IMG/VR virus record: IMGVR_UViG_3300005937_000009
Location: 8,190 to 72,189 of that record
Length of the DNA stretch: 64,000 nucleotides
Strand: one strand, 5' to 3'
Source of the DNA: a virus
Taxonomy: Duplodnaviria; Caudoviricetes
Part shown: one piece after another, positions 8,697-38,510 of the stretch
Layout of the letters: every line of letters begins with the position of its first letter
Numbering within the stretch: position 1 is the first letter of the stretch
Position numbers and translations under genes: made by a program
Notes under the pieces: generated by a model
What the model was told of the DNA's origin: nothing
The model's database searches: none
Seen by the model: only the letters and a program-made list of their open reading frames with translations

Positions 8697-9182
8697 TTAC
8701 CTATATAAGAGTTTAGTTTCCCGGTAGGTCTGCCAGATCAGCAGGCCGATATAGAGGCTGGTAGGTGCAAGCGCCCATTGCTGCCCAAGTAAAAACCAGT
8801 AGCCGAGAGCGGTGCACGCCATGCCGCCATAGCCCGGATGTCTCAGGTGCTTGTAAATGCCGGTTTTGATGATGCGGAGAGGGCGGACGAAGGCGGGCGT
8901 AAAATAGGGGTTCTCTCGAAAGGCTAAAATGGTCAAGGTCTGGCCGACGATCACCAGACATGCGCCCAGTATGCGCATCTCTACGGGCATCTCGGAAGGG
9001 TCACAATAAGCTTGTATGGCTGCCGTGATGGAGATCGACCAGACGAGGCACTGAGCGAGCATGAACAGCGGCGTATGCCGTGCTCCCTTCATATAGTATG
9101 CGCGCTGTCTGGCCGGGATGAATCGCGTTTGCGCGATCGTGGCGCCGACGTTGAGCAGAAAGAAGAGAAGCCACCAGACCAT
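8697..9182 (-). CDS. Isoprenylcysteine carboxyl methyltransferase (ICMT/Ste14/PEMT-like) membrane methyltransferase
   Basis: Several hydrophobic segments and the motif IIKTGIYKHLRHPGYGG, matching the G-x-Y-x-x-x-RHPxY signature. Confidence 0.75.
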   Translation of the reverse strand: MVWWLLFFLLNVGATIAQTRFIPARQRAYYMKGARHTPLFMLAQCLVWSISITAAIQAYCDPSEMPVEMRILGACLVIVGQTLTILAFRENPYFTPAFVRPLRIIKTGIYKHLRHPGYGGMACTALGYWFLLGQQWALAPTSLYIGLLIWQTYRETKLLYR

Positions 9183-9709: not shown

Positions 9710-10215
9710 TATGCGGCCTCCGGTTTCTGGTGATCGATCAACCAATCCAATCGCGTCATCTGGTAGACTTGCCAACTGTAATGCACGCCGTTTATCTCCT
9801 CTTCTTCGGGAAGGCCATAGGGATGCAAACCCGTCATCTCACACATGGCGGTAGAGCCTCTATGTTCATGTCCGTTGATGATGGGCCGATGGGTGTAGAT
9901 CGATTCCGCGTGCAGATCGTTGAAGAGAGACCAGCCGACTTGATAGACGGCATTGCCGATAACCCGTAGATCGCTCCTGCGGGGTGAGGTGACGTGCAAC
10001 AGATACTCGGCTTCCCCGGTCAGTTCGATGCTGATCACCGACAGCAACTTGATATTATCGAAGACCCCCACATACTTTTTGTTCGGCGCGGCTTCAAAGG
10101 TGTGATGGATATATGCGCGCCGACGAGATGCCCAGAGGCGAGCCCATTCGAGATGCGGCCCCTCGGCAATCGTGATCAATTCGAAATCAGTAGCTAACGG
10201 TGTCGATCTCGCCAT
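9709..10215 (-). CDS. Probable GNAT-fold protein (position of T7 gp13 / P22 gp14)
   Basis: 168 aa alpha/beta pattern, between nozzle and ejection genes. Confidence 0.45.
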   Translation of the reverse strand: MARSTPLATDFELITIAEGPHLEWARLWASRRRAYIHHTFEAAPNKKYVGVFDNIKLLSVISIELTGEAEYLLHVTSPRRSDLRVIGNAVYQVGWSLFNDLHAESIYTHRPIINGHEHRGSTAMCEMTGLHPYGLPEEEEINGVHYSWQVYQMTRLDWLIDHQKPEAA

Positions 10216-12469
10216 CTATCTTGAGTTCATCCAGCCGAGCGCTAACGCTATCCTGTGTGGCCATGCGGACCCGTACCGCCACGGTGCGCAGTTTTCGGAC
10301 ATTCATTTTCTTCCGGGCGGTCGTGACCACGGGAGTATTGACCCCGAAGGTAAGCTGGCCGCTCTGGGAATTGCCCCCGGCCTGTAGATCGCTGATCGGT
10401 ACGGCGCCATCAGCCACCGAGCCGTAAATCTCGCAGACGATGTTAGCCGCCGTGCTGCGGCCAGCGGTCAAGATGAGTCCTTCGACAGTCTTATCAAACC
10501 CCTCCGCACCCATATCCATGAACGGGGAAGCGGCGAAGACTTCGCCCACTTCGCCATTGGCCACCGAAACGGTATAGATATTGGTGGCTCCCGCATTGGT
10601 TGGAGATGCGAAATACATCACCCCCTGTACGGTCGCGGTCGAGGTCGCATAGGTCGGGTCAACATCGCTCAGATCTTCCATTCTGAGCGGTGGCCCCCAG
10701 ACCCCCATGCGCAGCATAAATGGCAGCAATGTGCCGTAGCGCGCCGTGCCGCCTGATCGTGTGCCGTCGTCGGCGTGCATATAACAGATAGCCTCGATCT
10801 GCTGGTTATACGCAACGGTGACTTTGCCGGCATCCCACGTTGACATGATCGAATCGACGGGAGCGGCAAAGGCATGCTCCGTTTCCACCTTATCCCCGAA
10901 TGCCGCTGAACGGGTCGCACCGTTGGTCGTGAAGGCGTAGAGATATCCGTTGGCAAACGCGATTGCTCGCGGGTTCCTGAATCCGACGGTCCAGAATGGC
11001 TTAGTGACCAATGGCACATCAGGATCTCCGGAAGCCTCCGCGAAGTTGAGGGAATTGGCGGTCAGTAAATAGATCCGCTCCTGCGCCTGGTAATAGCCTA
11101 TGATCGGGTCGGGCGGGTCGATCGCCACGGCGGAACGGGCAGGGTAGGCTTCGAAGTTGTAACCGCCCACGGTGCTCTTGGCCGGCCTGATCACCGGGCC
11201 GGGTGTTTCATCGGCTGACCGGATCGTAAGCCCGGAAGCGGTCGCCAGCGCATTCGTGGCCACCGTCATCGATGTATTAGATGAAATTACCGTCACGCGG
11301 TAGAGCAAGTCGTTGATCCAGACGAAGCGGCCAACCGCCAGCTCTGAAGTGAACTGCGTCGAAGTGCCGGTGATGGTCGCGCTGGCCGCCGTCGTCGCCG
11401 CCGTCCCGCTCAAGACGCGCCCCGCGCCATTGCAGGAGATCAGAACCGGAAGGCCACCGAGCGAGGCGACGAAGCCGGCGGAGGTCGCCGGGTCGTTATC
11501 AAATTCAAGTAGATCATTCTGGGATACTTCGGCGTCGGCCCATTCGATCGTGACGTTACCGCCCCCGCTCGACACTTCGGCAGTCGTGATGAAGCGTCCG
11601 AAGTCATACCATGGGCCTTGCGTCGGTGTCGTGTTGGTCGAGAGGGTAACGTAAACCTTCCATACGTCCTGGCCCGCTCCCGTGTCCATGGCCGGGAAAG
11701 TGATTTGCACCCGCTGGTTTGCCATGAGCGTTACCGATGCGCTGGGGCTGGCCTGGTTCCATCCCTTCGTGGCGCTTTTGGCCGAAACGATCCTAACGCT
11801 GTATGTCGTCGCGGCCATCTTCGTGCCGCCCGCGACATTCGCCAATGTCGGCGCGACCGGCGTGGTCATCCCGAGGCGATAGGGTGTGTAATTGCCGTTT
11901 CCCGGATTGTAGATAGCAAGCTGCGGTTGATCGGTCAGAGTCCAACCGCCCCCGGCCAGGACCGAACCATTAATGCGGACGGCGCCACGTCCCGCCCCCA
12001 GCAGATGCCCCTCTGGAAGGCGAACCACCGAACCTCGTATCAGGGTCAAAATGACGGTATCGAGCGCTTGAATCTGCTGCAAGATCGCAATCTGAATACC
12101 CGAACCGGTGGACGCGGCAGCCGGGGAGACCTGCATGGAGGTATCCGAATCAATACGAAAGACCGTATAGACTCGGCTGCTGATTGCTATCTCCTGCCCC
12201 GGCACAAATTCACTTAAGAACTTGGTGCTTGTCCCCGTGACCGTATTGCTGCCGGTGGTGATGGCAGCGGTGCCGGTCGCCAGGGTATTGCTACCCGATG
12301 CGGCAAAGAGTCCGTATCCTGTGTACTGCTCCAGATACTTGAACTCCGAGCCGCCTTTCAGGATCACATTAAGCCCCTGGTAGATATAATCGGCCTGTTC
12401 GCCGGTAACTGGCGCCGTCGGGTAGTAGCCCTGAATCGGCCTGAAGACTGCCTTGTAGGGATTCGACAT
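10187..12469 (-). CDS. Probable tail nozzle / DNA stabilization protein (P22 gp10 / T7 gp12-like)
   Basis: 760 aa, beta-rich, follows the adaptor genes and precedes the ejection cassette; two internal ATGTAA(I)T beta-sandwich inserts. Confidence 0.6.
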   Translation of the reverse strand: MSNPYKAVFRPIQGYYPTAPVTGEQADYIYQGLNVILKGGSEFKYLEQYTGYGLFAASGSNTLATGTAAITTGSNTVTGTSTKFLSEFVPGQEIAISSRVYTVFRIDSDTSMQVSPAAASTGSGIQIAILQQIQALDTVILTLIRGSVVRLPEGHLLGAGRGAVRINGSVLAGGGWTLTDQPQLAIYNPGNGNYTPYRLGMTTPVAPTLANVAGGTKMAATTYSVRIVSAKSATKGWNQASPSASVTLMANQRVQITFPAMDTGAGQDVWKVYVTLSTNTTPTQGPWYDFGRFITTAEVSSGGGNVTIEWADAEVSQNDLLEFDNDPATSAGFVASLGGLPVLISCNGAGRVLSGTAATTAASATITGTSTQFTSELAVGRFVWINDLLYRVTVISSNTSMTVATNALATASGLTIRSADETPGPVIRPAKSTVGGYNFEAYPARSAVAIDPPDPIIGYYQAQERIYLLTANSLNFAEASGDPDVPLVTKPFWTVGFRNPRAIAFANGYLYAFTTNGATRSAAFGDKVETEHAFAAPVDSIMSTWDAGKVTVAYNQQIEAICYMHADDGTRSGGTARYGTLLPFMLRMGVWGPPLRMEDLSDVDPTYATSTATVQGVMYFASPTNAGATNIYTVSVANGEVGEVFAASPFMDMGAEGFDKTVEGLILTAGRSTAANIVCEIYGSVADGAVPISDLQAGGNSQSGQLTFGVNTPVVTTARKKMNVRKLRTVAVRVRMATQDSVSARLDELKIDGEIDTVSY

Positions 12470-13068
12470 TACGATTTGCTGGCGGGTTCGCTCGAAACGC
12501 CTATCTGGCCGCGCAAGCGGATCGCCAGACGATCTTTCAGGTTGTTCTCAATCTCCGGGTCAATTTCGGTGTTGAGATCGCTCTTGGCCGGGATATGGAT
12601 CACATTCAAAGTCAAAGGGCTGGTGGTATCGGTAAAGCCCCCGGTGGAGATGGCGCGGGTGTGAATCTCGCTCACGCCTGATGTGTTCCCCTCGATGCAG
12701 TAATAGCCGAATAGATAGGGAGCGGGGAGGGTGAGCAGATCAGAGCGGTTGTGGACCCGTTGCAGGACGTTGCCATAGCCATTATTCGCGCTCGCGTCTG
12801 CGTCTCTCACCGTACCCTCTCCCATGTATTCGATGAGCACGGTTGCGGGCACCGTCCCGATACCGTTGGTCAAGATTACCGAGAACTCTTTCACCATCCT
12901 GGCGCGCAGCCGTGGATTACCGTGCAGGACCGCCGCGAGTTCCTGAATCGCGCTGTCAAAGATTGATTCCGCCTCAAGGGTCAACTTCTGGATGGGTGCC
13001 GTGTCCGGGTCCATCCCCGCTATCGCAATATCGATCGATTCAAGAATGATCTGGTTGAGAGTCGCCAT
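12469..13068 (-). CDS. Probable head-tail adaptor protein
   Basis: 199 aa; helical N- and C-termini around a beta core; translationally coupled to the nozzle gene. Confidence 0.5.
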   Translation of the reverse strand: MATLNQIILESIDIAIAGMDPDTAPIQKLTLEAESIFDSAIQELAAVLHGNPRLRARMVKEFSVILTNGIGTVPATVLIEYMGEGTVRDADASANNGYGNVLQRVHNRSDLLTLPAPYLFGYYCIEGNTSGVSEIHTRAISTGGFTDTTSPLTLNVIHIPAKSDLNTEIDPEIENNLKDRLAIRLRGQIGVSSEPASKS

Positions 13069-13796
13069 TAAGCCGCCGTCCCCAGCATCAATTGAGGTAT
13101 GCCCGTGGAGCCCGCCGCGATCATCGCCAATCCCGCCTGGTAGTAGCCCGCGAACGTCCCGGCCTGATCCAGGTTCTTGCCGTTGACGGTGGCCGCCGCG
13201 ACCGCTCCCGCGACGATCAGATCCGCGAGCACATCGGGAACCGTGATATTGCCCGATGCCACGGCTGATACCTGGTCGCTGCGTTCGTAGACGCAGACAT
13301 CAATCGTAATGTTCGTGGTCGTATGCCAGACTTGGCCCCCGCTGATCGTCCATAACCACGGGTTGTTGGTGTAGATTCCAGAATTGTTCTTGTATTTGCT
13401 GATCCGCTGGACGCTGGCCCGCGTCAAGAGTTGGTCGGTGTCGCTCGCGTCGTAAGCCTCACCGAAAGCGCCGATGATGTTTTTGCCGGTAGAACCGGTC
13501 GTCGGCAGGTTGGCGCCGTGCGAGAGGTTCGATGTCTTATCCCGGAAGAATCCGCGCCATGGGTGGTTCCCTATCCCCTCCCGGTTTACGCAAGAGGCGA
13601 TAGCCAGCGCAATTCGGCCATGAGCGTTGATGGCTAGATCTTGCAGGAAGGCCAAAGGGTAGACCACATCATCAATGGTCGATGTGGTGTGCGGCGTGGT
13701 CGCGTAATTGGTCGCCGCCGCTGATGCGGTCGCGCCCGCGAGGGCGTTGACGTGCTTTGCGATCTCCGAAACGAGTTTCGCGTAGGTAGTGGACAT
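13068..13796 (-). CDS. Probable head-tail adaptor/connector paralog
   Basis: 242 aa, same helix-beta-helix layout (MSTTYAKLVSEI...DLIVAGAVA...YYQAGL). Confidence 0.45.
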   Translation of the reverse strand: MSTTYAKLVSEIAKHVNALAGATASAAATNYATTPHTTSTIDDVVYPLAFLQDLAINAHGRIALAIASCVNREGIGNHPWRGFFRDKTSNLSHGANLPTTGSTGKNIIGAFGEAYDASDTDQLLTRASVQRISKYKNNSGIYTNNPWLWTISGGQVWHTTTNITIDVCVYERSDQVSAVASGNITVPDVLADLIVAGAVAAATVNGKNLDQAGTFAGYYQAGLAMIAAGSTGIPQLMLGTAA

Positions 13797-14237
13797 CTAT
13801 AGACCGCTGATGCTATCGCCGATAATATAAATATCAGCCGTGGCCGCGCCGCCCTGCGGGGTCGTCAGTGAAAGATAGAGGGTGGTTTCGGTGCGTCTGT
13901 CGGTGCCAAGGATCGCGGCCAGTGTGCAATCAAGAAACTTGGTAGAACCGGTGAGGGCGGTATAAATCTGGGTATTCGCCACAATCGCGGTAGTCTTTCC
14001 CGTCGCCGCGTAGAATCCTCCGACAGCCGTTGTCAAGCTGGTCGATGGATTTGTCACGATGATTTTTCGAATAATATAATTGCTGCTGTTGATCAAAATG
14101 GCCTGGTCAGCCGTGCTGTTCATATTGGCGGACTTCAGCACGCCCAGCACACCGGTCATCTCGCTTACGACTTTTCGTTGTGGTGCGGTGAAGGACGAAA
14201 AGAGGAGAAGAATACAGAGAGGTAATAGAAGCTTCAT
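13797..14237 (-). CDS. Beta-rich virion-type protein with predicted signal peptide
   Basis: Start reassigned to MKLLLPLCILLLFSSFTAP (ATG 14237); Thr-rich beta-sandwich body. Confidence 0.6.
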   Translation of the reverse strand: MKLLLPLCILLLFSSFTAPQRKVVSEMTGVLGVLKSANMNSTADQAILINSSNYIIRKIIVTNPSTSLTTAVGGFYAATGKTTAIVANTQIYTALTGSTKFLDCTLAAILGTDRRTETTLYLSLTTPQGGAATADIYIIGDSISGL

Positions 14238-14238
14238 A

Positions 14239-14748
14239 TCAATTAACTGTTGCCGTTCCGGTCGCGGCCGTGGCAATCCATTGGGTTGCCGAGATCGCCG
14301 TAAGGCTGAGCGATGAGCCCACGGCATCGAGCGTTACATTGCCCGCCGCCGCTGATTGAGAGGCGCCTACCTGAATCGTGGTCGATGCTCCCGCCGTGAT
14401 AGTTACCGTCTGGTTTGCGTCCCGATAGAAGATGTATCGAAGCCCCGCCGCCGCCGTCGGCAAAGTGAAGTTGACGCCCGCACCCGCGCCCGTGTTGGTG
14501 AAGAAAGTACCGGCGTCGGTGGCCAGCACCGTATAACCGGTGGTCTTTGCCGTCACCGTCACGTTTCCCGCCCCTGAGAAGGTAAGCAGATTATTGCTTC
14601 GGGTCAGGCTGTTATTTGGAAAGACGACCTTAGCCGGATTGGTGACTTTGGGCGAGCCGTCGGCCTCCTGAAAGATAATCGGGCTCGCGGTCTGCATCGC
14701 GGCCACGAACGGCAGCAGCAGCAGTATAAAGAGCGAACGATATTTCAT
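14239..14748 (-). CDS. Fibre-like protein with predicted signal peptide
   Basis: Start MKYRSLFILLLLPFVAAMQ (ATG 14748, TAATG overlap); QEADGSP module; VTAKTTGYTVLATDAG..TLPTAAAGL fibre-type motif. Confidence 0.65.
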   Translation of the reverse strand: MKYRSLFILLLLPFVAAMQTASPIIFQEADGSPKVTNPAKVVFPNNSLTRSNNLLTFSGAGNVTVTAKTTGYTVLATDAGTFFTNTGAGAGVNFTLPTAAAGLRYIFYRDANQTVTITAGASTTIQVGASQSAAAGNVTLDAVGSSLSLTAISATQWIATAATGTATVN

Positions 14749-15776
14749 TAGTTCCTTAAGGATGTGCGCCATGCGCCCGTGGTGTTATCGTAGATCACAT
14801 CGGCGCATTTGTTAGCCGCAAGTGTCAGGGCTGCTCCTGTAGAGTTCAGAAACCGGTTAGCCGCCGTCGAGGATGCCGATTGATGTTGAAAGACGATGTT
14901 TTGAGCCCCCACATTGCAAATGACGTGCGTTTGCCCATCTACCTGCGCCGTGCTGAAGGTGAGCCCGGTAACATTGCGGGAAGCATCGGAAGACCAGCGC
15001 TGAAAGTAGGAAGTGCCGCCGGGGTTGTAATTATTCTGGTCGGCGGTGATCTGCGCGGGAGTGGTCGCCACGGCGCGAAAGGTGCCGCCCACCGTCGTTG
15101 CGCTGGTATGCAATCCGGTGACGCCGGGAGCCGCACGATTGAGTCCCGTATCCTGCGTGTCGTACCAGTTATTACCGTTCGTCCACCACAGTTTGGCCCC
15201 TGAACTGAACGCCATGCCTGCATTGGCCGGATTGAATGACGTGAATGCCGCCAGTTCGTTTCCGCTTCCGGAATCGAATGTCACGAAGGCGGGACCATAG
15301 GTTGAACCACCCTTGTAAATCCACCAGAGGTCCGCGCCGTTCTCCTGAATCAAAATATGCTTGGATGCGGACGCGGCGGCAGTAGGGGTGATGTTCGATT
15401 GCCAGGTAATGAAGGTCACACCGGCATTGTTCCATGTCGCGGTGTGGGTAAAGGCCGGTGTGCTGCTGGTCAGCGTCCCCTGATTTAACGTCGTGGTCCC
15501 GCTAACCGTCCCGCCCCCGGTGTAGGTGATCTGGCTTCCACTCCGGGTCAGGCTGCCGTTAGGGAAAATGAGCTTTGTAGCATTGGTCTGCGCGGGCGAG
15601 CCATCAGCCTCTTGGATCTTGAGGGGTGGAACAGTCTGCAAAAACGGCAGAAAATCAACCGGAATCCGCAGATTGACTATCGCCTTTTTGCGCGGCGCTT
15701 CCCGTTCAGGCTGCTGAGACAGGCCGATACCGGCCATGGCGCAGAGACAAAATACGATAAGAATAGAACGCTGCAT
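14748..15776 (-). CDS. Fibre-like protein with predicted signal peptide
   Basis: MQRSILIVFCLCAMAGIGLS-Q leader; QEADGSP module; C-terminal beta domain with terminal ..YDNTTGAWR. Confidence 0.65.
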   Translation of the reverse strand: MQRSILIVFCLCAMAGIGLSQQPEREAPRKKAIVNLRIPVDFLPFLQTVPPLKIQEADGSPAQTNATKLIFPNGSLTRSGSQITYTGGGTVSGTTTLNQGTLTSSTPAFTHTATWNNAGVTFITWQSNITPTAAASASKHILIQENGADLWWIYKGGSTYGPAFVTFDSGSGNELAAFTSFNPANAGMAFSSGAKLWWTNGNNWYDTQDTGLNRAAPGVTGLHTSATTVGGTFRAVATTPAQITADQNNYNPGGTSYFQRWSSDASRNVTGLTFSTAQVDGQTHVICNVGAQNIVFQHQSASSTAANRFLNSTGAALTLAANKCADVIYDNTTGAWRTSLRN

Positions 15777-15780
15777 TCGA

Positions 15781-18039
15781 TTAAGGCGCGGTATATTTGA
15801 TGAGGTCGGTTTCTACCTGGCTCAATACGGCGTTGGTGGTATTGGTCAGATTTTGACCGGTGGCCTTGAAGATCGCGGTTGAACTGGCGGTAAAACCGAT
15901 ACTGACCGTAGCCGTTTTAGTCGCAATCGCGGTGCCACTTGCATCGATCGTGCCGATGATGGTAGCCACGGCGCGCACGTTGGATGCATCGATTCTCGTG
16001 ATGGTTCCCCAGACATGGACGCTTTGAGCCCCGCTGTTCGTCCATGAATGCTGCACAATCACGGTTCCATTGAAGAGAATCTGAAGGTTGCGGCCGACGT
16101 TATCGGCAGAAGTCAGAAAGACGCAATTGAAGTGCATTACGTCGCCATCGGTGCCGAACACATTAGCCGCGATCGTTTTCGAGTGTAGGTCCGTAACCGA
16201 ATTACTTGAAGTCGATGAGGTCGCGGTATTGACATAGTACGCGCCACCCAACGTGATCGTATCGGTCGAGGGCGTTGAACCATTGCCTGCCCTCGTGGTG
16301 ACTCTGCCGCCGTTATTTAAGGTGTAATAAATAGAACTGTTCTTACCCGCCGTAATGATATCGTTCGCGCCCGTGGTATTGACGCTCAATATCGGGTTGC
16401 CCGAGCCGCTTAAGGTGGCCCCTCCAAACGTCGGCGTAGAAGTCGTGGCAATGTCCTGCGGCGTTGATAACGTGGGATTGCCCGAGACCCCATCACCATT
16501 TGAGACGTTAACCTGATTGCTCGTACCGGTGATCGTGCGGGTTGTCCATGTGCTCGTTCCCGTTCGCGTGGCTATTCCGTTGGTGCTCAATCCCTCGACC
16601 GCGTTCAAATCGTCGGCCAGGGCCAGGGTGGGATTACCTGAGACGCCGTTGCCATTCGTCACGGTGATACCCGCCGCTGGCCCTGTCAAAGTGCGCGTCG
16701 TCCATGTGTCGGTGGCTGTTCTTGTGGCAAGTCCGTTTGTCGAGAGCCCTTCGACGCCGGCCAGGTCGTTTGCAAGCGCGAGCGTGATATCCCCCGCGAT
16801 GCCTGCGGGATTCGTGATTGTGATGCCTGCTGCCGGTTGCGTCACTTGGCGCTGTACCCATGTATCGGTCGCGGACCTTACGGCAATCCCGGTGCTCGAT
16901 AGTCCTTCCAGCGCGGCCAGGTCGTTTGCAAGTGCAAAGGTGGGATCGCCGGCAATGCCCGCCGGATTGGTGATGGTCAGGCCGGCTGCGGGCTGCTGCA
17001 ACGTCCGGGCGGACCCGGTGCCGGTCCCCGTGCGCGCCCATAGGCCATTACTCGTATTCGATGCCAATGCATCAAGATCGCTATCAGCCGTGACATTGAT
17101 CTTTGATCCGGTGTCGGCTGCGGTATAGCTCGATCCGACAAAGTTTAAGATGTTGCGCTGCGGGAGGTCTGATCCTTCCTCCTGAATCCGGGTGATGGAG
17201 CCGTTAACCGTGAGGGTTCCGCTTGAGATTGAGAACTCGGAAGCCAGGGTTAAACAATTCGTCGGCCTGCCCGATGAAGCGAAATAGACGAGCTGATTGA
17301 CGGTGCAGGAGGGCAGAAAGTTATTGATCTCCTGCTTCGAATAGGCGTCTAACCCCGTCACGACCGGGGGCGGATTGACCGTGTTAAAGCTGCAAATGTC
17401 CGCCCATGACGTAGGATTGCTGGTCGAACTCAGCATAAAAGACGTGACGCAACCGGGAAAGTTCTGGATAAATCCCCCGGATTGTGTATAGAGCGCGGCA
17501 GACCATCGGGAAGTGGTAGGGCTGCCGTCGGTCGTGGCCGGAAGATCGAAGGCCGGAAGATAGAGCACATTGGTTGAGCCGTTGTTGACCACGGAGGCCG
17601 CAACACGGGTGTACCAATTGCCGCTCCCCAGAGTGCCGGGTTGAATGGGAACGCTCGACCCGAGAGGCGTGAAGGCTGGCCCCGTCAAATAGGTTCTCAA
17701 ATGTACGAACTTATAGAGGGTTCCGCTATAGGTCGTAGTCGCATCAAGAAACGCGCTGGTCAGGGTCGCGGCGGATCTCGAGGGACAAGATGCGACCGTG
17801 TACGCCGTGCCGTTGATCAGGATGCGCCAGCCGGCCAACCCTACAACACTCTGCGGAAAGCATGAACTACATGTTAACGATGTGCTGGAAAGGGTCGCGC
17901 TGATCCCTGAAATCGTCAGATCGCTACCGATGTCAGTACGGTTGAAGCCGTTGACTGTCGTTGCCCCGATTGTAATGTCGGTGGCCAGCGCTGGCCCGGT
18001 GAGCACGAAGAAAAGAAGGATAAAGAGCAGATATCGCAT
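15781..18039 (-). CDS. Tail fibre-like protein with predicted signal peptide
   Basis: MRYLLFILLFFVLTGPALA leader; IQEEGSDLPQRNILNFVG motif; three 52-aa repeats (ANDLAALEGLSST / ANDLAGVEGLSTN / ADDLNAVEGLSTN, about 16450-17050); very Thr/Ser/Gly-rich. Confidence 0.75.
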   Translation of the reverse strand: MRYLLFILLFFVLTGPALATDITIGATTVNGFNRTDIGSDLTISGISATLSSTSLTCSSCFPQSVVGLAGWRILINGTAYTVASCPSRSAATLTSAFLDATTTYSGTLYKFVHLRTYLTGPAFTPLGSSVPIQPGTLGSGNWYTRVAASVVNNGSTNVLYLPAFDLPATTDGSPTTSRWSAALYTQSGGFIQNFPGCVTSFMLSSTSNPTSWADICSFNTVNPPPVVTGLDAYSKQEINNFLPSCTVNQLVYFASSGRPTNCLTLASEFSISSGTLTVNGSITRIQEEGSDLPQRNILNFVGSSYTAADTGSKINVTADSDLDALASNTSNGLWARTGTGTGSARTLQQPAAGLTITNPAGIAGDPTFALANDLAALEGLSSTGIAVRSATDTWVQRQVTQPAAGITITNPAGIAGDITLALANDLAGVEGLSTNGLATRTATDTWTTRTLTGPAAGITVTNGNGVSGNPTLALADDLNAVEGLSTNGIATRTGTSTWTTRTITGTSNQVNVSNGDGVSGNPTLSTPQDIATTSTPTFGGATLSGSGNPILSVNTTGANDIITAGKNSSIYYTLNNGGRVTTRAGNGSTPSTDTITLGGAYYVNTATSSTSSNSVTDLHSKTIAANVFGTDGDVMHFNCVFLTSADNVGRNLQILFNGTVIVQHSWTNSGAQSVHVWGTITRIDASNVRAVATIIGTIDASGTAIATKTATVSIGFTASSTAIFKATGQNLTNTTNAVLSQVETDLIKYTAP

Positions 18040-18040
18040 A

Positions 18041-18391
18041 CTATCCTAATAGACCATTGATCCTGGCGGTCACAGTCCCACCACCAACCACGTTAGCCGA
18101 CAATCGAGCCCGGACCCATGCCAGCATGCCCGGATAGGTGCCGTGATAGGCAACGCCCCCGGTCAGCGTTGAAAGGTCGATTGAATCAAGTTCATGCCAG
18201 GTGCCTGTATATGACGGGCTCTCAGAGTTGGTCTCTATCTTCAGAGTGCCTGATGAGATCGTACCGGCCCCAGCCACATCCCATGAGATCTGGCGGCAGT
18301 CATTCATGGCCTTCGTGGTGCCGGTGCCTGTCGTCGCCGCACTGAGGCTTAACGAATCATCGCTTGATGGCGGAAATTTAGAACCAACCAT
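18041..18391 (-). CDS. Small beta-sandwich virion protein
   Basis: 116 aa, alternating beta pattern ending WVRARLSANVVGGGTVTARING. Confidence 0.45.
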   Translation of the reverse strand: MVGSKFPPSSDDSLSLSAATTGTGTTKAMNDCRQISWDVAGAGTISSGTLKIETNSESPSYTGTWHELDSIDLSTLTGGVAYHGTYPGMLAWVRARLSANVVGGGTVTARINGLLG

Positions 18392-18403
18392 TGTATAGAC
18401 TCC

Positions 18404-19186
18404 TTACCATCCATAGTTGCCGGTCATCCGGCCCACGGGCATAAAATCAAGCTCGTAATCGCGGCCCATGCCGAGCTTCTGATTGACTCCTTCACGGGTG
18501 GGCTGAGCCTTGAAATCGTTGAATTGCTTTTGATACTTGGTGATGGCGTTGCTGAGCACTAGCGCCAGCGCTTTACACTTCATCTCCCATGCATCCGTCT
18601 TCTCGGTCAGGGAGACCGCGCCCCATGCGCATGCGGGCAGGGCATCGAGCGCCGTTTCGCACCTGATCAGGTGATGAAAAGCGCTGATTCCGGGCGTATC
18701 CTCAAGGGAACCGACATCGTAAAAGCAGTCGTACCAGATTTCGTATGTCACCGTCCCGCCTGGAATCGGGACAGGCCGCGCATACCATTGGGGAGCGGTC
18801 GCGGGCGTGCGGTAGAAAACGATCTCTACAGCGGAGTGCAATTGAGAGTTGTATTGCTGCGGCCCTAAATACCTGTATTCGGCATCCTGCATCAATGTGA
18901 AGGGGACTTCTCTCCGGACGTGGTAAGGGTCGCTAGCGTCCGTGGTATAGACCAGAAAAGGGCGCCCGAAGTCGGATGCGGTAATCAGATAATCCTCTGA
19001 TCCTGATCCGGTGGTGAGCGTCGTATGATTCACTGCCCAATGCGCCCGCACGTTGGCGAGTTGTAGCGTGTGGTCCGCTATCTTCTCCAACAGGATGTTG
19101 AGCAATATATGCTGCTGCGGGGCGGAGGGGTCAGGCTCAAGCAATCGCTGCCTGATCAGCGCGAGATTAGTTGTGATGGAAGGCAT
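18404..19186 (-). CDS. Probable adaptor/ring protein
   Basis: 260 aa, TLTTGSGSEDYLI..DFGRP motif and helical C-terminus; first gene of the tail block. Confidence 0.5.
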   Translation of the reverse strand: MPSITTNLALIRQRLLEPDPSAPQQHILLNILLEKIADHTLQLANVRAHWAVNHTTLTTGSGSEDYLITASDFGRPFLVYTTDASDPYHVRREVPFTLMQDAEYRYLGPQQYNSQLHSAVEIVFYRTPATAPQWYARPVPIPGGTVTYEIWYDCFYDVGSLEDTPGISAFHHLIRCETALDALPACAWGAVSLTEKTDAWEMKCKALALVLSNAITKYQKQFNDFKAQPTREGVNQKLGMGRDYELDFMPVGRMTGNYGW

Positions 19187-22258: not shown

Positions 22259-23521
22259 TTAATTTATATCCGCAACCTGGGTTGCTAAGCCTACCACGCT
22301 GCATCGCTTTATAAGGGCGTGGCATCTTGGTTCCTCCGTTCCCCAATTTGCCCACATGCCAATGGCTCCCGTGTAGGCGTCGGCACCGTATCCGGTCGAG
22401 CCTGAGCGCATGCGCAACTTGTTGCCGTCGGCATCGTAAGTATCGAGCGGCCTTTCCTCGTACTTCTTCAACTCGCTCTTGACGAGCAAATAAACGCGGT
22501 CTTCGTCGCAATCCGGATCGACAGCGGCTACCGTGTCCCCATGCTGCCACTTGTCAAAAGACTGATCGAAGATCTTTGCGTCTCCATCCCATCTCTTGAA
22601 GTTCTGGCCCAACTGCGTCAACGCCTGATCCTGCGCGAGCGACATGACAGCGATAAGAGTTTTTGCCTTGCCGATGCCGGCACGAGAGATCAAGAGCCGC
22701 TTGGTGTAGTTGAAATCGGCGGTTGTGATGGCCGCACCGTTGAGATCGCGCACCGGGCAGCGCAATTGCGGGTAGGTGTTCCGCGATTGGAGTTGAAACG
22801 TTCCGGTATCGTTGTTCACGATGTACGCCAAGCCTCGCGGCATCTTGTACAGTGAATTGGAGAGGACGAGGATATCGCCATCAGTCGCGCCCGAGACAGC
22901 GGCGGCAATGGTGATGGTTTTCGCGGCCTTGGCTGTTACCTGGACCGTGGCCCGGTAGGTCGCCAGCGTCGAGTCATACCAATCATAGCGCTCGGATACT
23001 TCCATATGCCGCGCTCCCTTGGTCGAACCAAAGGTAGAAAGCGGCGTATGATCGATCGCGTTGTAGAGCGTAACGGTGGTGGTCCCCGATTTGTATGTCG
23101 ATCGGAGGCCGGAACCATCGTTATAGACCTGGCGATTACATTCTTTCTTAATCGCCATCATCTCAAATTCCATATATCCGGGCAGGCCATCGATCATCGA
23201 TCCCTTACCCGCGAAGTTGTTGAGCGCTCGCCCGGTGATTTCGAAAGCTTTCGAAATGTTCATCGGATAGACGAACATATCGTCATTCGTGAATGCACCG
23301 GGTTGATTGAACGCGCCACCCTCCGCAATACCACTGACGCCTACGGGCGGGCGGAGATTGGACGGCACGCGAAAGCCTTTACCCTGCACATACTCAGTGC
23401 TCGCGGCCTTCTCGAATAGGTTGTATGTCGCGGTCTCTTGCTCAAACTGAGGTCTGAGCGAGTTAGCGACAAGTTGATCCAGTGCGGGGGCGATTGCCGC
23501 AATATTTACTGCAACACCCAT
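22259..23521 (-). CDS. Major capsid protein (HK97 fold)
   Basis: 420 aa after scaffold; GIAEGGAF, E-loop/P-domain-like pattern, RQVYNDGSG, GLAYIV, C-terminal ..PRCHALI. Confidence 0.85.
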   Translation of the reverse strand: MGVAVNIAAIAPALDQLVANSLRPQFEQETATYNLFEKAASTEYVQGKGFRVPSNLRPPVGVSGIAEGGAFNQPGAFTNDDMFVYPMNISKAFEITGRALNNFAGKGSMIDGLPGYMEFEMMAIKKECNRQVYNDGSGLRSTYKSGTTTVTLYNAIDHTPLSTFGSTKGARHMEVSERYDWYDSTLATYRATVQVTAKAAKTITIAAAVSGATDGDILVLSNSLYKMPRGLAYIVNNDTGTFQLQSRNTYPQLRCPVRDLNGAAITTADFNYTKRLLISRAGIGKAKTLIAVMSLAQDQALTQLGQNFKRWDGDAKIFDQSFDKWQHGDTVAAVDPDCDEDRVYLLVKSELKKYEERPLDTYDADGNKLRMRSGSTGYGADAYTGAIGMWANWGTEEPRCHALIKRCSVVGLATQVADIN

Positions 23522-25112: not shown

Positions 25113-25339
25113 GGCTCCGGGATCTTCCAGCCCTTTGAGCGTACTTCTTCATTGCGCTGCCGCTTCGCCGCAATGCGCTTGTAGAGTTCGGCTTCGCCTT
25201 CGAATTGTTCTTTCAAGCTATCTTGCAGCTCGAGGAGTATGGCGCGCATCTGATCGGTGGTGACGTGCTTGATCCGCTTCGGTCTCGGTCGAAACCGGGC
25301 AATGATCGCAGAAATGAGATGCTTAAGCCTTTGTAGCAT
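25109..25339 (-). CDS. Hypothetical protein
   Basis: 76-aa ORF overlapping the fcl stop. Confidence 0.5.
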   Translation of the reverse strand: MLQRLKHLISAIIARFRPRPKRIKHVTTDQMRAILLELQDSLKEQFEGEAELYKRIAAKRQRNEEVRSKGWKIPEP

Positions 25340-26276
25340 GCGCCGTTCTCTGGGCCTTGTACCAATCTACTGTTTCGCGCAGACCCGCGCCTAACCATCT
25401 CTTCGCGTTAAATCCGAATTTGGCGTTGGCCTTTGAGACTTCAAGCCATCGGTTCATCTGCCCATCCGGCCTTGAATGATCCCATTGAATCTTGCCTCTG
25501 AATCCGCATTGAGACGCAATCAAGCATGCGATCTCTTCGATGCTGATGGCAACGCCCGTGCCGACGTTCACGGGATCGCTCGAATCATAGCGCTCGGCCG
25601 CAAGTAAGATGGCATCGACCGCATCTTCGACGTGGAGGAAGTCACGGGTAGGCCGACCAGTGCCCCAGAGGGTAATGGATTGCGCCCCGGTCTCGACCGC
25701 TTCCACACACTTTCGAATAATGGCCGGGATAACGTGCGAGGTCTCCGGGTCGAAGTTGTCACGCGGGCCGTAGAGATTGGCCAACAGGAGATTGATGGAA
25801 TTGAATCCGTACTGCGCTCGGTATGCCTGAGACTGGATGATGAGCGTTTTCTTGGCCATCCCGTAGGCTGCATTCGTCGGTTCAGGGTATCCGTTCCATA
25901 GATCTTCCTCACGGAAGGGAACCGGCGTATTTTCGGGATAGCTGCAAATAGTACCGATGGAGATAAATTTGCGCACAGCCTCAATGCGCGCTCTCATCAG
26001 CAAGTACAAGCCCATCATGACATTAAAATCCCACATATCGGCGGGGCTTCCCTCGTTGAGTCCGATACCTCCACAATAGGCTGCACAGTGAATAATGCAA
26101 TCTGGGTCTATATCATCAAATAAATCTTTGACTTCTGCTCTTTCACATAAATCGTAATCATCACTGGACGGCGCATAAACTGTCGCTCCTCGCGCTTGTA
26201 ACTTCTCGACCACATAAGAGCCGAGAAAGCCGGACCCGCCGGTCACTAACACACGCTGAAAAGGAAAGTCAGTCAT
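25323..26276 (-). CDS. fcl: GDP-L-fucose synthase (GDP-4-keto-6-deoxymannose epimerase/reductase)
   Basis: VTGGSGFLG, HCAAYCGGIG.N, SIGTICSYP, PTNAAYGMAK, NLYGPRDNF..SHVIPA, WGTG.PTRDFLHVED, DHSRPDG motifs. Confidence 0.95.
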   Translation of the reverse strand: MTDFPFQRVLVTGGSGFLGSYVVEKLQARGATVYAPSSDDYDLCERAEVKDLFDDIDPDCIIHCAAYCGGIGLNEGSPADMWDFNVMMGLYLLMRARIEAVRKFISIGTICSYPENTPVPFREEDLWNGYPEPTNAAYGMAKKTLIIQSQAYRAQYGFNSINLLLANLYGPRDNFDPETSHVIPAIIRKCVEAVETGAQSITLWGTGRPTRDFLHVEDAVDAILLAAERYDSSDPVNVGTGVAISIEEIACLIASQCGFRGKIQWDHSRPDGQMNRWLEVSKANAKFGFNAKRWLGAGLRETVDWYKAQRTAHATKA

Positions 26277-26278
26277 AC

Positions 26279-27331
26279 TTACCGACCCGTCGCCTTGATA
26301 TATCCCGCCGTATATTCCGGGCCGACAGGGACGAAACTTTCGCCCCTACTACACCGGGCTTGCGCGAAGTCGCAATCTACCATGTTCTGCACAATCTGCT
26401 TAAATGTATGCTTCGGCTCCCATCCCAGCGCTTTCCGGGCCTTGCTCGCGTCTCCGCACAGCGAATGCAGTTCAGTTGGCCTGTACAATCGCGGGTCGAT
26501 CTCAACGTAATGCTGCCAGTCCATACCGAGATAGCCGAACGCTTCGTCAAGGATCTCACACACTGAATGACTTTCACCGGTCGCTATTACATAGTCGTCG
26601 GGCGTATCCTGCTGCATCATCAACCAGATCGCCTCTACGTAATCTGGAGCGTAACCGATATCGCGTTTTGCGTCGAGATTGCCGAGTTTCAGCGTCTTGT
26701 CCAATCTCAACTTGATCCGCGCTGCCGCCTTCGTGATCTTGCGCGTTATGAAAGTCTCTTTCTGTCGCGCCGATGTGTGGTTGAAGAGAATACCGTTGAC
26801 TACGAACAACTGCGTTGCCGCGTAGTAGCCGTGTCGGGCTTTCACTGCACATTGATAGGCTTCGTGCTTGCTCTCACCATAAGGAGAGCAGGGCTTAAAC
26901 GGCGTCATTTCGTTTTGAATGTCATCCTCTGCATTTCCAAACATCTCGCTACTGCTCGCCTGATATATCTTTGGATAACCGGGAATTGTGGGCCAGTTCA
27001 ATGCCGCTCTTAACAAGACTTGCACCATGCCGGCGGTATTCACATCCCTCGTATATTTCGGCATCTGAAAGCTGATCTGAACGTGAGACTGGGCGGCCAG
27101 ATTGTATATCTCGTGTGGCTGGCATTCCTGCAACACCATTCGGATTGCATCTTCATCCAGCAGATCGCAATACCGCATCTGCAAATGTCTGTAGATATGG
27201 TCAATCCGCCCGGTATTGATCGAAGAACATGGTCTTTGCGTACCCCATACTTCATAACCCTTGCTCAACAGGAGTTCAGCAAGATAGCTCCCATCCATTC
27301 CGGTAATGCCGGTGATCAGCGCTCTTTTCAC
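26279..27331 (-). CDS. gmd: GDP-mannose 4,6-dehydratase
   Basis: ALITGITGMDGSYLAE, YNLAAQSHVQISF, YQASSSEMFG, PCSPYG.SK, NGILFNH, FITRKIT, LGNLDAKRD.GYA.DYVEA motifs. Confidence 0.95.
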   Translation of the reverse strand: MKRALITGITGMDGSYLAELLLSKGYEVWGTQRPCSSINTGRIDHIYRHLQMRYCDLLDEDAIRMVLQECQPHEIYNLAAQSHVQISFQMPKYTRDVNTAGMVQVLLRAALNWPTIPGYPKIYQASSSEMFGNAEDDIQNEMTPFKPCSPYGESKHEAYQCAVKARHGYYAATQLFVVNGILFNHTSARQKETFITRKITKAAARIKLRLDKTLKLGNLDAKRDIGYAPDYVEAIWLMMQQDTPDDYVIATGESHSVCEILDEAFGYLGMDWQHYVEIDPRLYRPTELHSLCGDASKARKALGWEPKHTFKQIVQNMVDCDFAQARCSRGESFVPVGPEYTAGYIKATGR

Positions 27332-33877: not shown

Positions 33878-33972
33878 ATGATCACCTCACTTTGGAAACG
33901 GTGTTAATTGAAGTAGCCACCACCGGGTTAGCTAGCATGTGTTTTACCCTTCAAGGAACCGGATAGGCCATA

Positions 33973-34046
<74 letters not shown>

Positions 34047-34051
34047 ACAAG

Positions 34052-34324: not shown

Positions 34325-34340
34325 TATTGATCCTCTTGAG

Positions 34341-34413
34341 TGGCACGGGCAGGAATCGAACCTGCGTCAAACACTTTATGAGAGTGTTGAGATAACCACT
34401 TCTCTACCGTGCC
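34341..34413 (-). tRNA. tRNA with CAU anticodon (elongator Met or Ile2)
   Basis: GGCACGG-TA-GAGA..TCTC-A-ACACT CTCATAA AGTGT-TTGAC-GCAGG TTCGATT CCTGC-CCGTGCC-A. Confidence 0.88.
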
Positions 34414-37868: not shown

Positions 37869-38510
37869 TTAGGGAGCAATTACGATTCCACCGTAGACGC
37901 CCGGTTGAGTTCGGGGACCGGTCAGGACACCATTTGATTGCCGGTCAAGTTTGCCACCGACGAGAAAGCCGAAGTGTTCACCAGTCATCTTGATCAGGTA
38001 GCCGTTGAGTTGCCAGCCGCGAAACACCTTTGTACCGGTGTCGTTATTCACATCATCAAAGAGGCATTTATACATCAGGCGGGCGTGAGTCTTCATCTTC
38101 CCGGTGTCCGTAGTGTTCAGGTATTCGGCGCCGATGCCAGCGGTAGGATTGACGATCGTAACACTGTTAAAGCGCTGCATATCGGCACCACCGAGGACGA
38201 CAGCCGACCAGTGAGCCGAGATTGGGATTGACATGGTACCTTCGGGGTCCGCTTCGAAGGCCGCGCCGCCGCCGTTATCAAAGAAGCGCGGCTGGTTGAA
38301 GAGCCCCATAAATCCCCCCATCCCGATTTTGACCGGGCCGACGGGGAACACGAATTGACCCATGACCATGCCTCCGGCCTGAGTCTGGGAGCCTCCCGGT
38401 GAGCCGTTGCTAGAGGTCGTGGCGATTTGGGGACCAAGGGCGATGAAGGATTGAGCGCGGGCGCCGATAGTCAAGAGCGCCAGCAAGCAAAGTGCAAAAA
38501 CTGCTTTCAT
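37869..38510 (-). CDS. Signal-peptide-bearing outer-membrane beta-barrel-like protein
   Basis: MKAVFALCLLALLTIGARA-QS leader; alternating amphipathic Gly/aromatic beta strands. Confidence 0.55.
   Translation of the reverse strand: MKAVFALCLLALLTIGARAQSFIALGPQIATTSSNGSPGGSQTQAGGMVMGQFVFPVGPVKIGMGGFMGLFNQPRFFDNGGGAAFEADPEGTMSIPISAHWSAVVLGGADMQRFNSVTIVNPTAGIGAEYLNTTDTGKMKTHARLMYKCLFDDVNNDTGTKVFRGWQLNGYLIKMTGEHFGFLVGGKLDRQSNGVLTGPRTQPGVYGGIVIAP

Follow-up and report, generated by a model that had tools for sequence, protein, structure and literature searches.

Tailed phages are, by the textbook account, assembled entirely in the cytoplasm, and fibres and tailspikes such as T7 gp17, P22 gp9 and those of SU10 have no signal peptide and fold and attach there. 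Why, then, would a tailed phage encode four consecutive fibre-like proteins that each begin like a secreted one? The question is raised by genes A to D (13797-18039, minus strand) of IMG/VR virus record IMGVR_UViG_3300005937_000009, the 72,189-bp genome of an uncultured soil phage, which has direct terminal repeats and is rated complete. Its positions 8190-72189 make up the 64,000 nucleotides analysed here (the window), to which our coordinates refer. We find that the leaders of A-D are real, conserved and specific to these genes, that the bodies behind them are modular and of fibre type, and that the predicted cleavage point and the presence of cysteine pairs are linked to the leader. From this we infer export itself, membership of the virion, and the time and place of attachment. 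For the whole chain, i.e. Sec export, periplasmic maturation of virion fibres and their joining the particle at lysis, we estimate a probability of roughly 0.45. Judged from sequence, the leaders would very likely direct export of at least A and B, and there is a reasonable case that A-D are virion parts.

At the start of each of four successive genes, the original prediction had recognised a basic n-region and a hydrophobic h-region that lead up to a cleavage site of small residues. Both this reading and its choice of start codons agree with the starts that we read from the DNA by stop-start coupling and, at A and C, by Shine-Dalgarno (SD) sequences. Gene A starts at 18039, 1 nt past the stop of the preceding gene and with AGGA 8 nt upstream; B at 15776, 4 nt past the A stop; C at 14748, in a TAATG overlap with the B stop and with AAGGA upstream; and D at 14237, 1 nt past the C stop. 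Longer open reading frames (ORFs) for C (from 14772) and D (from 14327) were rejected on account of this coupling and, for C, of the AAGGA. All four proteins open with one or two basic residues, followed by an uncharged hydrophobic run of 12-17 residues with small residues near its end. The A leader comprises 19 amino acids (aa; nt 17983-18039), with predicted cleavage (marked by a slash) at MRYLLFILLFFVLTGPALA/TD, i.e. after ALA. The leaders of B (nt 15717-15776, ...AMAGIGLS/QQ), C (nt 14698-14748, MKYRSLFILLLLPFVAA(M)/Q, with the site at VAA/M or AAM/Q) and D (nt 14184-14237, MKLLLPLCILLLFSSFTA-PQ) are of similar make. Small residues at -3 and -1 are clear in A (ALA/TD) and B (GLS/QQ), while the only A-x-A-like site of D would place a proline at +1. 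Neither a twin arginine (RR) nor an L-x-x-C lipobox was found in any of the four leaders, so these are not Tat or lipoprotein signals.

Leaderless isoforms from a second start codon were also considered. Gene A has no in-frame start codon from codon 12 to 68, which makes a leaderless isoform impossible and excludes a dual-start model for this gene. In D such a model is unlikely: there is a methionine at codon 27, but the homolog that is 84% identical and keeps the leader has an aspartate at this position, so that the upstream start is the conserved one. Real starts downstream of the hydrophobic stretch, which would have removed the leaders, were thus not seen, given the coupling, the SD sequences, the start-codon gap of A and the unconserved Met27 of D. 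A start at Met14 of B, as in the public gene call P0040, halves the leader of that protein, and automatic annotation of this type would hide its signal.

A strict, if crude, leader rule (net positive n-region, uncharged run of at least 10 residues of high hydropathy, small residues at -3 and -1) flags 6 of the 102 genes of the whole genome. Genes A-D are four of these six and are consecutive; when gene order is permuted, a run of at least four flagged genes has P = 2.9e-4. In non-coding shadow ORFs, the hit rate of the rule is 4.6%. The tail-core genes E, F and G have no leaders. The only other clear Sec-type leader of the genome (...TIGARA/QSF) belongs to a 213-aa protein without a Pfam family (37869-38510, minus strand), which has Gln at +1 like B, a Bacteroidetes Q-rule pattern.

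Conservation of the leaders, which the original prediction had put forward as a check, is evident for each of the four genes in its closest homologs and, for A and B, throughout the family. A sister contig from a soil metagenome (L122, 8,223 bp) has the same gene order from a 280-aa protein via g18404 and g18041 to A-B-C-D, and all four leaders are present there. Identity to this contig is lower in the leader than in the mature part of each protein (61 vs 80% for A, 21 vs 73% for B, 81 vs 86% for C and 41 vs 89% for D). Such faster drift with retained hydrophobic character is the usual behaviour of signal peptides.

The family of A carries the argument further. With A residues 1-290 as query, 39 proteins were found, of which 30 have a leader ending small-x-small (AxA) directly before a conserved TD(I/V)xIG and three look like truncated gene calls. 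The remaining six are leaderless: their first residues, M-SDITIG, M-ADIVIG or M-SSIQIG, coincide exactly with the predicted cleavage point. Eight further A-homolog loci, on viral contigs and in one metagenome-assembled genome (MAG), have leaders as well. The conserved, beta-rich N-terminal domain of A contains three cysteine pairs (C57/C60, C197/C216 and C245/C262). All six cysteines are kept in 26 of the 30 leader-bearing members, the other four forming a subgroup without those at 57, 60 and 197. In the leaderless six, positions 57/60 are occupied by Gly/Phe and positions 245/262 by Gly/Pro-like residues, and half of these proteins also lack the 197/216 pair. Cysteines vanish in pairs, as expected of disulfide partners. 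In a tree of the mature domain, the leaderless proteins form one clade (support 100/98) nested within the leader-bearing diversity, indicating that the switch occurred once and probably went from an exported to a cytoplasmic protein. Together, the leaders, the match at the cleavage point and the loss of cysteine pairs point to genuine export, cleavage and disulfide formation.

Genome context for a leaderless A is available from one relative (L102/L114), whose major capsid protein (MCP) is 66% identical to that of this phage. Its protein, P0028, is encoded in the tail module directly after gene I, in the slot of the leader-bearing A homologs of L101, L103 and L003. The two arrangements differ in that an ICMT/PEMT methyltransferase gene (plus one small gene in L101 and L003) stands between I and A in the latter. 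It follows that the same fibre occupies the same slot in two versions, with leader and disulfide cysteines or with neither. By tblastn synteny, at least eight relatives have the methyltransferase gene as the direct upstream neighbour of their A homolog (e.g. at 5052-5549 in L101, at 9447-9926 in L103, and just upstream of position 7001 in L116, L117 and L118). It is absent from L102/L114, where a 410-aa multipass membrane protein without a Pfam match follows A, and it was not found near the leader-bearing A homolog of L119. The two genes may belong together because the enzyme modifies the receptor of the fibre; alternatively, the pairing may have to do with export.

That the bodies are of fibre type, as originally proposed, is supported for each protein, although Pfam holds no family for any of A-D. 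A matches phrog_697 ('structural protein', E 3e-22) and, along 160 aa, is 48% identical to the protein annotated as tail fiber in Bradyrhizobium phage ppBdUSDA122-1. Among its homologs, the N-terminal domain is joined to varied C-termini, including PF12708, in bodies of 429-2314 aa, and some end in a pectate-lyase-type domain, as in tailspikes. An AlphaFold2 (AF2) model of the mature N-terminal domain reached a predicted local distance difference test (pLDDT) score of 84, and tail proteins and tailspikes have accessory domains to which small domains of the A model correspond. Comparison of the A sequence with PDB chains gave no match, and a Foldseek search of the N-terminal domain against PDB gave nothing at E <= 1e-3. 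Against BFVD and with VIA-align, matches were limited to Ig-like ones and to a small beta-barrel insertion domain of a kind frequent in tail proteins (Z ~8), which is not decisive.

Elsewhere, long leaderless fibres carry the tips of B, C and D at their C-termini. Leaders are present in all four non-self homologs of the N-terminal part of B, the closest ending ...VHA/QQ. The B tip (~100 aa) matches short leaderless fibres of L002/L102 and L101 and is found at 13 other viral loci, some leader-bearing and some not. For C, an 85%-identical homolog keeps the leader. The C tip domain (~105 aa) is widespread: it was found in 2,935 representative clusters, where it almost invariably forms the very C-terminal end of proteins 130-2,000 aa long, and 93-100% of its look-alikes in the Atlas are viral. 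The strict leader rule is passed by 47 of the 149 best non-self representatives. In this set, cysteines are more frequent in leader-bearing than in leaderless proteins, with medians per 100 aa of 0.55 and 0.24, respectively (Mann-Whitney P 0.001), cysteine-free members are fewer, and an even cysteine count is found in 31/40 leader-bearing vs 28/68 leaderless ones (Fisher P 2e-4). A role of the C tip as a C-terminal sorting domain of the type IX secretion system was set aside; most carriers are leaderless and Pfam gave no match. The jelly-roll domain of D (~115 aa) occurs at 79 viral loci, mostly in leaderless small proteins or as the C-terminal tip of long fibres, and 29 of the 120 best standalone homologs, including the closest (84% identity), have leaders. 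In its AF2 model (pLDDT 89), the fold is similar to those of trimeric phage cement proteins, carbohydrate-binding modules and fibre tips (Z 9.1-6.4). For C and D, tblastn found no relative among 50,697 GenBank phages. The same holds for the MCP, which marks the lineage as uncultured.

Behind their leaders, B and C share the motif QEADGSP...FPN.SLTRS. The same short motif, in the general form (I/V)xE(A/V/I)DG(S/T)P, lies within ~10 residues of the predicted cleavage site in many unrelated leader-bearing proteins (P0048, P0072, P0079, P0080, P0092, P0119, P0120, P0150 and the product of L011 4480-6303). It could serve as a docking element dependent on a free N-terminus. Gln directly follows the predicted site in 27 of 46 leader-bearing representatives, hinting at Bacteroidota hosts for many of those proteins. 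Runs of leader-bearing genes were also seen on other viral contigs, such as L057, where four such genes stand just before an adaptor-like gene.

How might such proteins reach a particle? In the route that we favour, A-D would be the host-recognition fibre set of the phage, each made as a precursor with a Sec signal peptide. The precursors would cross the inner membrane and be cut by signal peptidase I (A after ALA, giving the new N-terminus TDITIG), and the fibres would then fold, form disulfides and trimerise in the periplasm. Capsid, adaptor E and the tail core F/G, which are leaderless, would be built in the cytoplasm, and fibres and particles would meet only when lysis proteins break the inner membrane. 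Docking would proceed through the conserved mature N-terminal domain of A, while B and C may dock via their shared post-leader motif. In the sister clade, the same fibre would have returned to the cytoplasmic route by losing leader and disulfides. Late attachment of a finished fibre is feasible in principle, given that completed P22 heads accept the tailspike in vitro. Moreover, expression of the phage-like trimeric fibre protein Bd2133 of Bdellovibrio with a PelB leader yielded fibres (PMC10769870), showing that fibres of this kind can fold after Sec export.

Several points weigh against this route. We know of no pathway by which periplasmic proteins join tailed-phage particles made in the cytoplasm, and literature searches found no paper describing exported tail fibres or such a route for tailed phages, in keeping with the original statement that no described pathway fits. 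That the host has a periplasm is an assumption here, and disulfides could also form after release. The cleavage site of D is poor and that of C unusual. The start of B is ambiguous, with no SD sequence and with P0040 called from Met14, and the link between leader and cysteines is unclear in the small sample of B-tip proteins (n=11). The joint loss of leader and cysteines in the A family is a single evolutionary event. Besides, export signals and cysteine pairs would fit equally well if A-D were exported and did not become virion parts. They would then be fibre-derived proteins acting on the envelope of the infected cell itself, a scenario that we consider less likely than the favoured route but its main rival. 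At the surface or in transit, they might bind or degrade the receptor glycan, which would give superinfection exclusion or keep progeny off debris; display on the cell as adhesins resembling the MAT fibres of Bdellovibrio is another possible role. Exported receptor-blocker genes are known beside receptor-binding genes, an example being T5 Llp (PMC9586334), and leader-bearing Porphyromonas phage genes were taken as envelope modifiers (Matrishin 2023). MAT fibres are themselves Sec-leader cell-surface proteins with a conserved domain behind the signal and swappable tips (PMC10769870), and the usual neighbour of A is a gene for a membrane methyltransferase. Yet the leaderless ortholog has the same mature N-terminus and the same tail-module slot, whereas a periplasmic actor working before lysis should not tolerate the loss of export. 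No other fibre candidate is present in this phage, the short leaderless fibre of its relatives being missing. There is a single A gene per genome and not a virion copy plus a decoy copy, and neither a lipobox nor features of an outer-membrane (OM) barrel were seen in A-D.

Conversely, A-D might be virion fibres whose particle-bound copies never cross a membrane, either because the hydrophobic segment acts as an inner-membrane tether or assembly helix, or because export is partial and the cytoplasmic fraction is used. Tailed-phage fibres are known to assemble in the cytoplasm, D and perhaps C are without a good cleavage site, and the tip domains of B, C and D have many leaderless homologs. We nevertheless regard this as improbable: AxA stands directly before the conserved mature N-terminus and the leaderless clade starts exactly there, which argues for cleavage; the cysteine pairs are kept in leader-bearing members only, with even cysteine counts enriched; and A cannot make a leaderless isoform. 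An artefact, i.e. wrong start codons or chance hydrophobic N-termini, is hardly credible. The longest ORFs of C and D do begin upstream of the leaders, B has no SD sequence and the rule flags 4.6% of shadow ORFs, but against this stand the tight stop-start coupling, the SD sequences at A and C, the conservation of leader character across dozens of homologs while the sequence drifts, and the run of four (P ~3e-4).

Should the exported-fibre route hold true, a tailed phage would assemble in two compartments, with its fibre set exported and added only at lysis, and particles would be infectious only from lysis. Such fibres could carry disulfides and perhaps periplasmic modifications, which is relevant to stability in soil. 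The phage would depend on host Sec, signal peptidase and Dsb functions. For fibre or depolymerase proteins encoded in metagenomes to fold, expression would have to be periplasmic or without the leader. A clean natural comparison is offered by the A family, in which one fibre, at an unchanged place in the tail module, comes either with both leader and cysteines or with neither. Two culturable systems, Cellulophaga phage phi18:3 and the prophage of Bradyrhizobium USDA 122, are open to direct tests.

These two systems illustrate that leader-bearing structural or fibre proteins are not unique to this phage. Phage phi18:3 (KC821620), a Pachyviridae podovirus with a genome of about the same size (71 kb), encodes three consecutive large proteins, gp085, gp086 and gp087, with Sec-type leaders (...GYS/Q, ...VSA/Q and ...LNA/Q, respectively). 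All three are annotated 'structural protein, experimental MS/MS', and thus belong to the virion according to the record. However, blastp of gp085-087 against A-D or any structural protein of this phage gave nothing below E 0.1, and phi18:3 has a marine Bacteroidota host and Q-rule leaders, so that the likeness is one of analogy only. A literature search found no paper discussing the phi18:3 leaders. The Bradyrhizobium phage ppBdUSDA122-1 (OP596612.1) encodes a 'tail fiber protein' (WAX24263.1, 865 aa; L017) that shares the fibre repeats of A and the tip of B and has a Sec-type leader (...TALA/AEQ) and 18 cysteines; the preceding 482-aa protein is leader-bearing, too (L121, 3635-7716). It differs in its N-terminal domain and in phage type, and the record annotation is silent on the leader. 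The prophage releases particles from a culturable diderm host (PMC10127595). An acyltransferase gene follows the tail fiber gene on the opposite strand.

Among cellular proteins, the MAT fibres of Bdellovibrio bacteriovorus (Bd2133 and 20 others) combine a signal peptide, a conserved beta-rich N-terminal domain, a trimeric phage-like fibre and swappable tips (PMC10769870). A is laid out in the same way, with the predicted signal peptide directly before a beta-rich N-terminal domain, and the likeness drawn here is one of architecture; the tip of D aligns only weakly with that of Bd2133 (Z 6.4). MAT fibres are encoded by the cell and sit on its own surface, and are not parts of a virus particle. 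WceF of Pantoea stewartii is an exported trimeric protein of tailspike fold that acts on a surface glycan (PMC7949094), but it bears a Tat instead of a Sec signal, is exported after folding and is encoded by a bacterial gene in an exopolysaccharide (EPS) cluster. Nearest in print are the Sec signals following the Bacteroidetes Q-rule on Porphyromonas phage genes of unknown function (Matrishin 2023). Export signals are likewise known from phage genes located within or close to the fibre region, such as those of T5 Llp, T1/phi80 Cor and lambda Lom, which are small lipoproteins or OM proteins without fibre modules, unlike A-D with their fibre-module bodies of 146-752 aa and no lipobox. With T7 gp17, P22 gp9 and the SU10 fibres, A-D have in common the N-terminal docking domain (putative in A-D), the variable C-terminal receptor-binding or depolymerase domain and the position of their genes beside adaptor and nozzle genes.

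Nearly all genes of the window lie on the minus strand, and those around the A-D block are listed in Table 1. Downstream of the MCP gene (22259-23521, minus strand) follow two small genes, genes for the 280-aa and a 334-aa protein, a DNA methyltransferase, g18404, g18041 and A-B-C-D. Past D come adaptor E, F, G, the small protein H, I, the ICMT/PEMT methyltransferase, a 441-aa protein and a giant protein with an SLT domain at its N-terminus. The original prediction had placed the block between adaptor genes. This is borne out on its downstream side, where E is an adaptor; on its upstream side, g18404 and g18041 matched no Pfam or PHROGs family. G, whose stop codon overlaps the start of H, contains small domains of tail-fibre type (PHROG matches) and is probably the hub or nozzle.

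Table 1. Features of the tail module in window coordinates.
Feature	Position	Strand	Description
Gene A	15781..18039	-	752 aa; long fibre-like protein; leader, beta-rich N-domain, fibre repeats, C-terminal domain
Gene B	14748..15776	-	342 aa; ~20-aa leader, QEADGSP motif, ~100-aa C-terminal tip domain
Gene C	14239..14748	-	169 aa; 17-aa leader, QEADGSP motif as in B, ~105-aa tip domain
Gene D	13797..14237	-	146 aa; ~18-aa hydrophobic leader, ~115-aa jelly-roll tip domain containing ANMNSTADQ
Gene E	13068..13796	-	Leaderless tail adaptor; PF24175 SU10_adaptor, 29.2 bits (cutoff 27)
Genes F and G	10187..13068	-	Leaderless tail-core proteins (199 aa and 760 aa)
g18041 and g18404	18041..19186	-	Leaderless (116 aa and 260 aa); upstream of the A-D block
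Membrane methyltransferase, ICMT/PEMT family	8697..9182	-	Pfam PEMT, ICMT, DUF1295

In relatives, the order E-F-G is conserved (L002-L005, L101, L102 and L103), and homologs of g18404 are 47-50% identical. The A-D block is not in this slot there: in L003, L004 and L005, E directly follows the g18404 homolog, and the A gene, one per genome in the relatives examined, stands elsewhere in the tail module. A short leaderless fibre is encoded right after G in relatives and is absent from this phage, in which the only copy of its tip domain is the one on B.

As regards the host, SD cores precede 28% of genes vs 9% of background, and the Q-rule fits B and one other leader, not A; neither observation decides the matter. 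Relatives of the MCP were found on contigs of a 10.4-Mb MAG labelled uncultured Heliobacteriaceae (G001; L104, L105 and L106-L108), which includes at least three contigs of related phages, each with a leader-bearing A homolog in open frames of 999-2053 aa. We treated a Heliobacteriaceae host as a product of unreliable binning, with phage contigs swept into the bin. The head operon includes genes for a GDP-mannose 4,6-dehydratase and a GDP-fucose-synthase-like epimerase (25323-27331, minus strand), beside that of a 663-aa methyltransferase-bearing protein, and a link of these nucleotide-sugar genes with the exported fibres is possible. Lastly, upstream of the terminase gene there is a closely spaced pair of tRNA-Met (CAT) genes (33972-34047 and 34340-34413, minus strand).

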